Below, piece by piece: positions 10,163 to 46,212 of a stretch of 64,000 nucleotides of DNA. The number at the start of each line of letters is the position of its first letter. Positions within the stretch are counted from its first letter, which is position 1. Position numbers and translations under genes: made by a program. Where the stretch lies: NCBI RefSeq assembly GCF_013315695.1, contig NZ_CP054353.1; one strand, 5' to 3'. This DNA is from Escherichia coli. GTDB lineage: Bacteria; Pseudomonadota; Gammaproteobacteria; Enterobacterales; Enterobacteriaceae. The notes under the pieces were generated by a model. It made no database searches. It had not been told where the DNA came from and saw only the letters and a program-made list of their open reading frames with translations.

Positions 10163-10188
10163 ACAGGACGTTGGTCCTGTTTTTTTTA
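10163..10188 (+). terminator. rho-independent terminator of ompF
   Basis: Hairpin ACAGGACGTTGGTCCTGT followed by eight T. Confidence 0.75.
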
Positions 10189-14808: not shown

Positions 14809-15044
14809 CCCTTGCCCCCTGTTTTTATCATACTCTGAATAGCCAGGCTGTTATTTTACGACTTGCCTGTACAACGCCAATACTCACGAAAGTATGACGA
14901 GCAAGCCTGTTACTCATCAGGCTTATCTTCAGTATATAAACGCCGATACGTTTTTACATAACCTAATGTAAAGAAGTTTAAAGAAAAGCGCGCCAGAATG
15001 TGGCACTTTTTTAGTGCAGAAACGGAGTTTTCAGAAACAGGAAA

Positions 15045-34825: not shown

Positions 34826-35590
34826 TTACTTACCAGAGGCGATACGATCACGGATGTGTTGCGCACGCTCTGTTGATGGTGGGTGAGAGTCAAACATGGA
34901 CTGGGTACGACCGCCATCCAGGCTGGCCAATTTTTCAAAGCTGCCAACCAGCCCCTGGGTGCTGATGCCACGTTTCTTCAACAGATCAAAGGAGAAATCA
35001 TCTGCTTCGGACTCTTTATCGCGGGAGTATTTAGCATTGATCGCGCCTTCTGCGATATCACCTAATTGTGAGCGAGAAAGCTGGGAAGCCACACCGCTGG
35101 TAGCGGAAATCGCATCACGTGCGGCAACGATCGCATAAGAAGCTTTCATTTCAGCCAGCGAGTGACCCAACGCGACGTGGCCCAGTTCATGACCCAGAAC
35201 GCCTTCAATTTCGTTGTCGTTCATCATGTCCATCAGGCCACTGTAGACACGAACACAGCCGTTCGCCATCGCCCATGCGTTGACGTCGCTGGTCATATAA
35301 ACCTTATAGTTGACCGGCGTGCCATTAATATTGTTACCCAATGCTTTGGCGATTTTTGCCAGACGTTTACCGTACTTGCTGGATTTACTTGCGACTTGAT
35401 TGCCGCTGTCCATTTCGGCACAGCCCTGATTGGCAATCGCTTTTGCATCAGCATCGCTTAACGTTGCTGCTTTATAGGCATTTAAACCTGAGCTGATAGC
35501 CATATTGGTATCAATACCGTGGGTATTTTGACACCCTGTCAGTAATGCTGCAGAGGCCGCAATCGCCAGCAGTAATTTAGTATTCTTCAT
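34826..35590 (-). CDS. ycaL: M48-family zinc metalloprotease lipoprotein
   Basis: ORF with lipoprotein signal (MKNTKLLLAIAASAALLTGC) and HELGH zinc motif; start taken at MKNTK, the track ORF extends 8 codons upstream. Confidence 0.88.
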   Translation of the reverse strand: MKNTKLLLAIAASAALLTGCQNTHGIDTNMAISSGLNAYKAATLSDADAKAIANQGCAEMDSGNQVASKSSKYGKRLAKIAKALGNNINGTPVNYKVYMTSDVNAWAMANGCVRVYSGLMDMMNDNEIEGVLGHELGHVALGHSLAEMKASYAIVAARDAISATSGVASQLSRSQLGDIAEGAINAKYSRDKESEADDFSFDLLKKRGISTQGLVGSFEKLASLDGGRTQSMFDSHPPSTERAQHIRDRIASGK

Positions 35591-35699
35591 GTGAATCATC
35601 CGTTGATTAATCATATATAAATATTATGTATCAACAACTTACATTGACAAGCGACGCTACCATTAATCAAAATGACTCACAAGGTCCGAAAAAAAACGC

Positions 35700-35712
35700 C
35701 GACAATGTGCCG
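35700..35712. repeat. 13-bp target-site duplication, left copy (CGACAATGTGCCG)
   Basis: Identical 13-mer immediately flanks both ends of the IS4 copy (the other copy is 37139-37151). Confidence 0.9.
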
Positions 35713-37138
35713 TAATGCCGATCAGTTAAGGATCAGTTGACCGATCCAGTGGCTGTGTAAGAATCCGGAAACGCTCACTTGTTTCCGGATTTTTTTATGC
35801 ACATTGGACAGGCTCTTGATCTGGTATCCCGTTACGATTCTCTGCGTAACCCACTGACTTCTCTGGGGGATTACCTCGACCCCGAACTCATCTCTCGTTG
35901 CCTTGCCGAATCAGGTACTGTAACGCTACGCAAGCGCCGTCTTCCCCTCGAAATGATGGTCTGGTGTATTGTTGGCATGGCGCTTGAGCGTAAAGAACCT
36001 CTTCACCAGATTGTGAATCGCCTGGACATCATGCTGCCGGGCAATCGCCCCTTCGTTGCCCCCAGTGCCGTTATTCAGGCCCGCCAGCGCCTGGGAAGTG
36101 AGGCTGTCCGCCGCGTGTTCACGAAAACAGCGCAGCTCTGGCATAACGCCACGCCGCATCCGCACTGGTGCGGCCTGACCCTGCTGGCCATCGATGGTGT
36201 GTTCTGGCGCACACCGGATACACCAGAGAACGATGCAGCCTTCCCCCGCCAGACACATGCCGGGAACCCGGCGCTCTACCCGCAGGTCAAAATGGTCTGC
36301 CAGATGGAACTGACCAGCCATCTGCTGACGGCTGCAGCCTTCGGCACGATGAAGAACAGCGAAAATGAGCTTGCTGAGCAACTTATAGAACAAACCGGCG
36401 ATAACACTCTGACGTTAATGGATAAAGGTTATTACTCACTGGGACTGTTAAATGCCTGGAGCCTGGCGGGAGAACACCGCCACTGGATGATACCTCTCAG
36501 AAAGGGAGCGCAATATGAAGAGATCAGAAAACTGGGTAAAGGCGATCATCTGGTGAAGCTGAAAACCAGCCCGCAGGCACGAAAAAAGTGGCCGGGACTG
36601 GGAAATGAAGTGACAGCCCGCCTGCTGACCGTGACGCGCAAAGGAAAAGTCTGCCATCTGCTGACGTCGATGACGGACGCCATGCGCTTCCCCGGAGGAG
36701 AAATGGCGGATCTGTACAGTCATCGCTGGGAAATCGAACTGGGATACAGGGAGATAAAACAGACGATGCAACTGAGCAGGCTGACGCTGAGAAGTAAAAA
36801 ACCGGAGCTTGTGGAGCAAGAGCTGTGGGGTGTCTTACTGGCTTATAATCTGGTGAGATATCAGATGATTAAAATGGCGGAACATCTGAAAGGTTACTGG
36901 CCGAATCAACTGAGTTTCTCAGAATCATGCGGAATGGTGATGAGAATGCTGATGACATTGCAGGGCGCTTCACCGGGACGTATACCGGAGCTGATGCGCG
37001 ATCTTGCAAGTATGGGACAACTTGTGAAATTACCGACAAGAAGGGAAAGGGCCTTCCCGAGAGTGGTAAAGGAGAGGCCCTGGAAATACCCCACAGCCCC
37101 GAAAAAGAGCCAGTCAGTTGCTTAACTGACTGGCATTA
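35713..37138 (+). mobile_element. IS4 insertion sequence, complete (1426 bp)
   Basis: 18-bp imperfect terminal inverted repeats (TAATGCCGATCAGTTAAG at 35713-35730; reverse complement of 37121-37138 matches 16/18), a single transposase ORF, exact 1426-bp length, and a 13-bp direct repeat on both flanks. Confidence 0.95.
35797..37125 (+). CDS. insG: IS4 transposase
   Basis: 442-aa ORF from ATG 35797 ([20 protein letters not shown]...) matching IS4 InsG; the track ORF start at 35779 is an alternative-start extension. Confidence 0.95.
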
Positions 37139-37151
37139 CGACAATGTGCCG
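37139..37151. repeat. 13-bp target-site duplication, right copy (CGACAATGTGCCG)
   Basis: Exact copy of 35700-35712 directly abutting the right IS4 inverted repeat. Confidence 0.9.
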
Positions 37152-37197
37152 ACGTTTTGATAAAGAAAGATTTGGCTATTTATTGCACGTTGTTCAT

Positions 37198-38481
37198 TCA
37201 GGCTGCCTGGCTAATCCGCGCCAGCTGCTCGAAATAATCCGGAAATGTTTTGGCCGTGCATTTGGGATCAAGAATCGTCACTGCCGTATCTGATAATGCG
37301 ACCAGCGAGAAACACATCGCCATCCGGTGATCATTATAAGTGGCGATCTCAGCAAATTTCAGTTTTTCCGGTGGCGTAATGCGAATAAAATCGTGCCCCT
37401 CTTCGACTTCCGCACCAACTTTACGCAGTTCTGTTGCCATCGCAAACAGGCGATCGGTCTCTTTAACACGCCAGTTATAGATATTGCGCAGCGTGGTGGT
37501 GCCTTTTGCAAATAACGCCGCCGTGGCAATGGTCATCGCCGCATCAGGAATATGGTTCATATCCATATCAATGGCGTTCAGTTCACCACGCGTGCAGGAA
37601 ATATAATCATCGCCCCAGCAAATGGTCGCACCCATTTTTTCCAGCACATCAGCAAAGCGAATATCACCCTGCATACTGTTGCGTCCAATGCCGGTCACTT
37701 TTACAGTGCCGCCTCTGATTGCTGCTGCTGCCAGGAAATAAGAAGCCGAGGATGCATCGCCTTCGACCAAATAAGTACCCGGAGACTGATAAGACTGCCC
37801 CCCTTTTACGACAAATTGTTGATAGTGCTGATTTTCAATTTCAACACCAAACGTCTTCATCAGATTGAGGGTGATGTCGATATAAGGTTTAGAAACCAGA
37901 TCGCCTTTAATACGAATCACCGTATCTTCCGACGCAAGAGGTGCAGTCATTAACAGTGCGGTGAGGAACTGGCTGGAAACGGAGCCATCAACGTCAACGT
38001 TGCCGCCAGTAAAGCCGCCCTGTAAACGCAATGGTGGATAATTTTCTTGTTCCAGGTAAGTGATCTTCGCCCCGCCCAGGCGCAGCGCATCCACCAGATG
38101 ACCAATGGGGCGTTCTTTCATACGCGGTTCACCGGTCAGCACAATATCATTGCTACCCAGACAAAGAGCTGCCGCCAGCGGACGCATTGCCGTTCCGGCG
38201 TTACCGAGGAACAACTCCAGGGCACTTTTTGCGTGTAATGGACCGCCGTTACCGATGATTTCGCAACGCGTACGATCGGCTGAAAGCGTATAGCTTACCC
38301 CTAACGCTGCTAATGCATTCAGCATATGGCGCACGTCATCGCTATCCAGCAGATTGGTTAATACTGTTTTGCCATGTGCTAATGCCGCCAGCAATAAAGC
38401 GCGGTTAGAAACGCTCTTGGAACCAGGCAGATTAATGGTGCCATCGACACGAGCGATGGGTTGTAACGTCAGGGATTCCAT
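37198..38481 (-). CDS. aroA: 3-phosphoshikimate 1-carboxyvinyltransferase (EPSP synthase)
   Basis: 427-aa ORF ([49 protein letters not shown]...) matching AroA. Confidence 0.97.
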
Positions 38482-38551: not shown

Positions 38552-39640
38552 TTAGCCGTGACGGCGTTCGAACTCAACCATGAAGTCTGTCAGCGCTTTA
38601 ACGCCTTCCAGCGGCATGGCGTTATAAATAGACGCGCGCATTCCGCCGACCACACGGTGACCTTTCAGCGCATGAAGGCCAGCAGCAAAAGACTCTTCAA
38701 GGAACAATTTGTCAAGCGCACTGTCCGCCAACTGGAACGGCACGTTCATCCGCGAACGGTTAGCTTTCGCCACGTCATTGCGGTAGAAATCGCTGTTATC
38801 AATCACCCCATACAGCAGTTCTGCTTTTTGCTGATTGATTTTATCCATTGCAGCTACACCGCCGTTCGCTTTCAGCCATTTAAAGACCAGACCAGACAGA
38901 TACCAGGCAAATGTCGGCGGCGTGTTGAACATGGAATCGTTATCGTTGAGGATGGAGTAATCCAGAATCGATGGGCAGGCGATATTCGCTTTGCCCAGCA
39001 AATCTTCACGAACGATGACGATTGTCAGGCCAGCCGGGCCGATATTTTTCTGCGCGCCAGCGTAAATTACCCCATAACGGCTGACATCAATCGGACGGGA
39101 AAGAATGGTTGAAGAGAAGTCGGCGGCGACCACCACATCTTTGCCGAAGTCTGGCGTTTCGTCGATGGCGATACCGTCGATGGTTTCATTCGGGCAGTAA
39201 TGCATATAAGCAGCATTATCAGAGAGCTGCCATTCTCGCATTGGCTTAACCGCGCGCAGACCATCAACAGTCACTTTGGCGTCAAAGACATTAGGCGTGC
39301 AGTATTTTTTCGCTTCTTTAATGGCACTTGCCGCCCAGTAACCGGCATCAACATAATCTGCAGTGGTTTTATCACCGAGAATATTCAGCGGAACAGCAGC
39401 AAACTGACCGCGACCGCCGCCATGGCAGAACAATACCTTGTAGTTGGAGGGGACATTAAGAAGATCGCGAAAATCCTTCTCGGCTTCCTCTGCAACCTGA
39501 ATGAACTCTTTGCCCCGGTGACTCACTTCCATCACCGACGTACCAAGACCGTTCCAGTCGCGCAGTTCCTGTTGAGCCTGTTTAAGCACCTCTGCCGGTA
39601 GCATTGCCGGACCAGAACTAAAATTGAAGATTTGAGCCAT
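38552..39640 (-). CDS. serC: phosphoserine aminotransferase
   Basis: 362-aa ORF ([46 protein letters not shown]...) matching SerC; upstream of aroA on the same strand (serC-aroA operon). Confidence 0.97.
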
Positions 39641-46021: not shown

Positions 46022-46063
46022 TTAGATTTGACTGAAATCGTACAGTAAAAAGCGTACAATAAA

Positions 46064-46089
46064 GGCTCCACGAAAGTGGGGCCTTTTTT
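46064..46089 (+). terminator. rho-independent terminator of pflB
   Basis: Imperfect hairpin GGCTCCAC-GAAA-GTGGGGCC followed by TTTTTT. Confidence 0.6.
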
Positions 46090-46212
46090 AGCACGAGAGC
46101 CTTTTTTGTCAGCTATCTATACTTTAAGGTGACTGCCAAAACAGACTCGACGTAGCCTTCGAGCTGCGCACCAACACGGCCTCAGATGGGCCACATCTGG
46201 AGAAACACCGCA

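Follow-up and report, generated by a model that had tools for sequence, protein, structure and literature searches.

IS4 has long had a target rule of its own: the classical formulation, AAA-N20-TTT, comes from the literature of the 1980s on galT, pheST-attenuator, and chromosomal sites, and the target-site duplication is given in the literature as 11-13 bp, about one helical turn. Related preferences occur elsewhere. For instance, IS231 of Bacillus thuringiensis, a member of the IS4 family, reportedly targets GGG-N5-CCC with flanking A/T tracts. It shares with IS4 a dyad-symmetric GC core, arms rich in A/T, and a duplication roughly one helical turn long, but differs in core consensus and host, and its preferred natural target is the end of Tn4430 rather than host terminators. 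Bacterial class C group II introns are said to insert just after intrinsic terminators and, like IS4, would be mobile elements using terminator stem-loops as low-cost landing sites. However, the introns are retroelements: they recognize a stem-loop in single-stranded DNA and enter on its downstream side, whereas IS4, a DDE transposon, cleaves inside the stem and leaves its core duplicated.

Other insertion sequences are drawn to a defined repeat: IS1397, ISKpn1, and IS621 target REP/BIME sequences (PMC1525189). These elements resemble IS4 in their strong preference for extragenic palindromes and in their recurrence at homologous sites, but their target is the repeated REP family, while that of IS4 is a class of sequence and structure—A-tract, hairpin, T-tract—and not a repeat family. 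Within subgroup IS4, striking target-arm specificity has been described (De Palmenaer et al. 2008; PMC2266710). The 22 IS4 sites compiled here agree with that specificity and with the AAA-N20-TTT rule, having A/T arms around an 11-14 bp duplication, and go beyond it in two respects: the arms mostly coincide with predicted intrinsic-terminator hairpins, and the sites downstream of aroA and eno are hot spots occupied in two orientations. In the literature searched, we found neither the coincidence of IS4 with terminators nor the aroA and eno hot spots stated.

The copy annotated in K-12 MG1655 (insG, NC_000913.3 4,502,090-4,503,515) provides the most direct comparison. Like the copy studied here, it is 1426 bp long, with the same 18-bp terminal inverted repeats and a single DDE transposase open reading frame; the two differ at 4 of 1426 nucleotides, and their transposases at two amino acids. 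They differ, too, in chromosomal location: as the preliminary description had said, the annotated K-12 element lies elsewhere, and in a comparison of the kind that description proposed, with IS-free strains, the aroA-ycaL spacer of MG1655 is empty. The K-12 site also has AAA...TTT arms, with a 12-bp duplication. Its palindrome is weak (-8 kcal/mol), unlike the aroA site with its predicted terminator hairpin. Against this annotated K-12 copy, E. coli MSB1_4I has about 18.

The copy described here lies in a window of 64,000 nucleotides of E. coli DNA, the whole stretch that was analyzed, which is 100% identical across 24 kb to MSB1_4I (NZ_LR898874.1), a rectal-swab isolate from Australia. The features needed for the argument are as follows.

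34826-35590, minus strand: ycaL, an M48 metallopeptidase lipoprotein of 254 aa (annotation and open reading frame).
35623-35650, minus strand: promoter-like element upstream of ycaL, TTGTCA-16-CATAAT (consensus scan; putative function).
35689-35699, no strand: left target arm, an A8 tract (35689-35696) plus CGC, one half of the split putative aroA terminator.
35700-35712, no strand: left 13-bp target-site duplication, CGACAATGTGCCG (direct repeat).
35713-37138, plus strand: complete IS4, 1426 bp (repeat and inverted-repeat anatomy).
35713-35730, plus strand: left terminal inverted repeat (IRL), 18 bp, matching IRR at 16 of 18 positions.
35737-35764, plus strand: transposase promoter-like element TTGACC-16-AAGAAT, TG-extended (consensus match; putative function).
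35760-35796, plus strand: inward-facing terminator-like hairpin directly 5′ of the transposase ATG (fold).
35797-37125, plus strand: IS4 transposase coding sequence, 442 aa from ATG (open reading frame; Pfam record).
37099-37134, minus strand: inward-facing terminator-like hairpin at the right end, facing transcripts from aroA (fold).
37121-37138, minus strand: right terminal inverted repeat (IRR), 18 bp (inverted-repeat match).
37139-37151, no strand: right 13-bp target-site duplication (direct repeat).
37152-37158, no strand: right target arm, ACG then TTTT, completing the putative aroA terminator that IS4 has split.
37198-38481, minus strand: aroA, EPSP synthase, 427 aa (annotation and open reading frame).
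38552-39640, minus strand: serC (annotation and open reading frame).
46055-46092, no strand given: predicted pflB terminator in the pflB-pflA spacer, the best match to the IS4 target matrix in the window.

Exactly two copies of CGACAATGTGCCG occur in the window, at 35700-35712 and 37139-37151, and the repeat can be extended on neither side. The 1426 bp between them (35713-37138) end in imperfect 18-bp terminal inverted repeats that match at 16 of 18 positions, a pattern found nowhere in the window except at the two IS4 ends, with 0 matches expected by chance. The flanks are syntenic with K-12, serC-aroA on one side and ycaL-cmk-rpsA on the other. The preliminary description had presented the element as a complete IS4 in a simple insertion, with an intact transposase and perfect 13-bp flanking repeats; the length, inverted repeats, and flanks all agree with that account, the transposase is an uninterrupted frame of 442 codons, and the two repeats proved identical when rechecked. 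Its placement of the site is equally sound, as IS4 ends 59 nt past the aroA stop codon (37198), the duplication copy counted in, and starts 122 nt before the ycaL ATG (35590). Both the 13-bp duplication and the A/T arms are those of an IS4 insertion, the 22 sites having duplications of 11-14 bp.

This is an ordinary intact copy of a known E. coli insertion sequence. Its exact 442-aa protein has Pfam Nterm_IS4 (PF13006) and DDE_Tnp_1 (PF01609) on record, and is itself recorded in thousands of assemblies, with ten copies within one genome. Records differ over where the transposase starts: PGAP places it at a TTG at 35779 (448 aa), which sits in the loop of the 5′ hairpin, while K-12 insG begins at the ATG 18 nt downstream (442 aa). 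Across complete E. coli genomes IS4 is present in 2686 of 5426; the median number of places is one, the highest 32. Counted genome-wide, as the preliminary description had suggested, the MSB1_4I chromosome gives 18 matches to the IS4 left end, or about 18 copies. The five genomes whose flanks are identical to the window's have 18 (NZ_LR898874.1), 18 (NZ_OZ547117.1), 12 (NZ_CP146670.1), 15 (NZ_OZ546925.1), and 15 (NZ_OZ546911.1) such ends, and these differing copy numbers suggest that gain or loss of IS4 is ongoing inside the lineage. The intact frame and ends, the 12-18 copies in near-identical genomes, and the many copies encoding an identical protein are indirect signs of a copy of the active type that may still be mobile.

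Our reading of the locus, which we hold with a probability of roughly 85% when taken as a whole, is that IS4 transposed into the putative Rho-independent terminator ending the serC-aroA transcript, that it has done so recurrently and independently in E. coli, and that the outcome is probably near-neutral. IS4 prefers a target composed of an A-tract, N3, an 11-14 bp core cut in a staggered manner, N3, and a T-tract, usually with a GC-rich central dyad, and intrinsic terminators that look bidirectional have exactly this form. The putative aroA terminator, AAAAAAAACGC[CGACAATGTGCCG]ACGTTTT, fits it, with the duplication (in single brackets) centered on the dyad. On this reading, the quality of the target explains why IS4 has entered it repeatedly and independently in many E. 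coli lineages, in both orientations.

Evidence on the target itself comes from the empty site, reconstructed by deleting IS4 together with one duplication copy (AAAAAAAACGC-CGACAATGTGCCG-ACGTTTT). The RNA of the aroA strand forms a stem of 12 bp closed by a 3-nt loop, with U8 after it; at -15 kcal/mol (z = -4.2), this fold was equaled by none of 200 shuffled sequences. The hairpin begins 39 nt past the aroA stop codon and, with its U-tract, is conserved in all 13 aligned lineages. In the target, the hairpin stands between A8 and T4; the core measures 19 nt, and the 13-bp duplication takes up its positions 4-16, centered on the dyad of the hairpin. By sequence criteria, the target is the predicted intrinsic (Rho-independent) terminator of serC-aroA, and the native hairpin would serve as a terminator; the literature searched yielded no mapped RNA 3′ end at the aroA U-tract and no report of a serC-aroA terminator. 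The insertion has destroyed this hairpin. While the preliminary description was right to place IS4 between aroA and ycaL, it overlooked that this location is inside the predicted aroA terminator.

The same target layout recurs at other IS4 sites. Our set comprised 22 distinct sites, the window site and 21 contexts from protein look-ups; the transposase variant of IAI39 supplied two contexts only, the aroA site and one beside clpB, of which one was new. The shared pattern is an A-tract, N3, an 11-14 bp duplication, N3, and a T-tract. Counted from the duplication, A stands at -6 in 22 of 22 sites and at -5 in 21, while T fills +4 to +7 past the duplication in 19-21 of the 22; the three bases on either side of it are G/C-rich and mostly complementary. 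Compared with random 44-mers drawn from the window, 64% of the sites fold as well as the top 5%. Many of the sites lie at gene 3′ ends: after adhE, eno, and rpoD, between degS and mdh, and beside clpB. IS4 sites appear, on these features, to be mostly terminator-like. At the K-12 site the arms fit and the palindrome does not. Two copies in GCA_900448835.1 (L021, L022) sit inside a DUF4049 gene and bcsG, with A/T arms and little dyad symmetry, so terminator structure is not obligatory for insertion.

With the aroA site left out of its training set, a position weight matrix (PWM) for the IS4 target placed 35700 third of about 62,500 positions in the window cleared of IS4, and chose the correct 13-bp duplication length there. 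Two unoccupied stretches of the window, 10167-10179 and 14991-15002, have PWM scores equal to that of the aroA site. The best PWM site in the window is the pflB terminator at 46067, tacaataaaggc[TCCACGAAAGTGGG]gccttttttagc, where occupancy had been expected; searched in both orientations, IS4 was found there in 0 of 5426 genomes. It follows that arm and core sequence alone fail to predict occupancy; other influences must act as well, whether selection, local context, or a determinant outside the model. For pflB itself, selection against parting pflB from pflA is our guess. Target sequence is necessary, then, and not sufficient. IS4 occupies the eno terminator (L018, GCA_900448835.1) in 83 and 78 genomes in opposite orientations, 161 in total, making it a more frequent IS4 hot spot than aroA. 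Since eno is also occupied both ways, the aroA site is one hot spot among several and not special. Palindromic cores are found at 10 of the 22 real sites versus 2 of 35 window matches that have the arms only (p = 6e-4). This excess could reflect survivorship, with insertions in terminators tolerated and those in genes lost, as well as a preference of the transposase.

IS4 also brings hairpins of its own. At the left end, a 14-bp stem (35760-35773 with 35780-35793) runs into T7/U7 and folds at -23.5 kcal/mol (z = -6.3). The right-end hairpin, on the minus strand (37134-37099), starts three nucleotides inside IRR, with a perfect 11-bp stem, GCCAGTCAGTT/AACTGACTGGC, and a 4-nt loop, and then TCTTTTTCGG; UCUUUUUCGG lies after the stem. 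Outside transcripts would, from these folds, meet a terminator-like structure in either orientation of IS4. The left-end hairpin shares part of its 5′ arm with the -10 (35759-35764) of the transposase promoter-like element, so transcripts from the element's own promoter-like sequence would lack that arm. This arrangement resembles the protection of IS10 and IS50 against outside transcription. Because hairpin-plus-U-tracts face inward at the IS4 ends, aroA transcripts are predicted to end about 40 nt inside the element.

What would this mean for the neighboring genes? Between IS4 and ycaL, a 5-bp residual hairpin and T8 are left on the minus strand; ycaL would keep these along with its own promoter-like element (35650-35623), which is largely conserved in 13 aligned loci. 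The preliminary description held that the insertion displaces ycaL from upstream promoters or read-through from serC-aroA, and this is not supported: the target being the predicted aroA terminator, ycaL would already have been insulated from such read-through, and its promoter-like element is kept. Nor was its suggestion of outward promoter activity supported, as a consensus scan, a crude tool that weak promoters may escape, found no outward-facing promoter-like element at either IS4 end; the only minus-strand matches were in the native spacer (35650) and inside aroA (37362). With the end hairpins facing inward and the ycaL promoter-like element retained, the effect on aroA and ycaL is probably small, close to neutral.

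It is tempting to go further and to regard IS4 as a dedicated terminator-seeking element, whose transposase senses dyad hairpin DNA together with the A/T arms and whose end hairpins replace the terminator that is destroyed. We consider this extension possible but, on balance, less likely than not. If it were true, insertions would be nearly neutral either way round, a few host terminators would become homoplasious hot spots, and IS4 occupancy would be an unreliable phylogenetic marker.

The hot-spot character of the aroA-ycaL site is an observation. The same junction in the window's orientation is present in 39 of 5426 complete E. coli genomes, which fully cover a 400-bp query in which the ycaL flank runs into the left end of IS4; the same ycaL flank joined to the reverse-complemented IS4 right end, again at full coverage, revealed the opposite orientation in 70 further genomes. 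Together these 109 genomes make up 2.0% of those searched and 4.1% of IS4 carriers, and the site accounts for 2.0% of the roughly 5480 IS4 places. They include IAI39, CE10, NCTC86, SMS-3-5, and UMNF18.

A reduced form of the element is also seen between aroA and ycaL. The O121 strain 201805972 (L007, 5201-6197) carries a 997-bp IS4 derivative with a 429-bp internal deletion, covering IS positions 44-472, through which the promoter region and the N-terminus of the transposase are lost. The two IS ends and the 13-bp duplication are intact, and this non-autonomous derivative could in principle be mobilized in trans.

Frequent occupancy invites the idea that positive selection is the main driver, with IS4 usefully altering aroA or ycaL expression and target preference being secondary. 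The empty pflB terminator, which scores equally well, does indicate a factor beyond target score, but differential tolerance, in the form of purifying selection at pflB-pflA, explains that contrast equally well. Both orientations are common at aroA (39 and 70 genomes) and present different IS ends to each gene, and the scan described above found no outward promoter-like element with which IS4 might drive a neighbor. Moreover, ycaL retains its promoter-like element and a residual terminator, and IS4 likewise recurs in both orientations at the terminator of eno, an unrelated site. We therefore consider selection improbable as the main driver and retain a favored target, entered repeatedly, as the better account.

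How often the site was entered can be judged from a base-by-base comparison that covered 12 of the 109 occupied loci (11 fetched, and L035 via protein look-up) and two empty ones. IS4 sits at the identical nucleotide in all 12. Of the 11 fetched loci, six carry IS4 pointing the same way as in the window and five the other way. All compared loci have a 13-bp duplication except CFSAN061772 (12 bp), and the duplication tracks the local target allele, CGACAATGTGCCG or CGGCAATGTGCCG: IAI39, SMS-3-5, MS20645, and OZ038879 have CGGCAATGTGCCG, with its G in both copies of the duplication. The IS4 copies at the aroA site differ from the window's by 0-11 nucleotides, and that of MS20645 has 11 mismatches and a 2-bp frameshift. 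The flank comparison, too, supports independent events. K-12, NCTC86, UMNF18, and CFSAN061772 have flanks just 1-6 SNPs apart in 8.8 kb; K-12 is empty, NCTC86 has IS4 in plus orientation with a 13-bp duplication, UMNF18 in minus orientation with 13 bp, and CFSAN061772 in minus orientation with 12 bp. In OZ038879, the IS4 copy has the same sequence as the window's, but 265 of 8804 flank positions are different.

Because orientation, target allele, and duplication length differ, as do the IS variants, at least five independent insertions have occurred at the aroA site. The flank tree suggests more, eight or more among the 11 fetched loci.

One or a few insertions might instead have been spread by homologous recombination of the aroA-ycaL region. 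E. coli recombines, and several same-orientation carriers (H1-H7) share identical 400-bp junctions while their wider flanks are just 98.6% identical, so recombination may explain some of the sharing within one orientation, not the whole pattern. It cannot yield opposite orientations or differing duplication lengths, and in OZ038879, MS20645, and IAI39 the bases adjoining IS4 are the alleles native to the recipient lineage. We reject it as the main explanation on the strength of orientation, duplication length, duplications that match the local allele, and differing IS variants, and give it little credence in that role.

Weaker still, and scarcely credible, is a single ancient insertion ancestral to much of E. 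coli and mostly lost by precise excision, with the window copy as a relic: occupancy of the same position in distant lineages and the decay of the MS20645 copy speak for it, but both orientations occur, duplications of 12 or 13 bp equal the local target allele on both sides, IS4 identical or nearly identical to the window's lies in flanks 3% diverged, and only 2% of genomes are occupied, so that orientation, duplication length, allele-matched duplications, and IS variants again lead us to reject it as the main explanation.

IS4 is present at the site in each of the five genomes whose flanks are 100% identical, and the closest genomes with an empty site have 99.2% flank identity. The window's IS4 is thus ancestral to its small clade: MSB1_4I and four near-identical genomes inherited this copy from a common ancestor. 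The preliminary description had raised the prospect that reference genomes share the same IS4 at this site as an ancestral feature. That is so within the five-genome lineage; species-wide, the insertions are recurrent and independent.

The element is a known one with known target behavior, and what is added here is modest: the aroA terminator as a target by sequence criteria, a hot spot used in two orientations in 109 of 5426 genomes, and IS4 sites that appear mostly terminator-like. For aroA and ycaL biology, the predicted effect is small. For the use of IS4 in comparing strains, the consequence is more direct. IS4 insertions between aroA and ycaL, like those after eno, are homoplasious: they have arisen repeatedly and in both orientations, and should therefore be taken neither as a marker of shared ancestry nor as a strain-specific regulatory mutation. 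The locus provides a clean natural example of how an insertion sequence may use intrinsic terminators as low-cost landing sites while bringing terminator-like hairpins of its own, and landing in terminators would help to account for genomes that hold 18-30 copies of IS4 and show no obvious damage.
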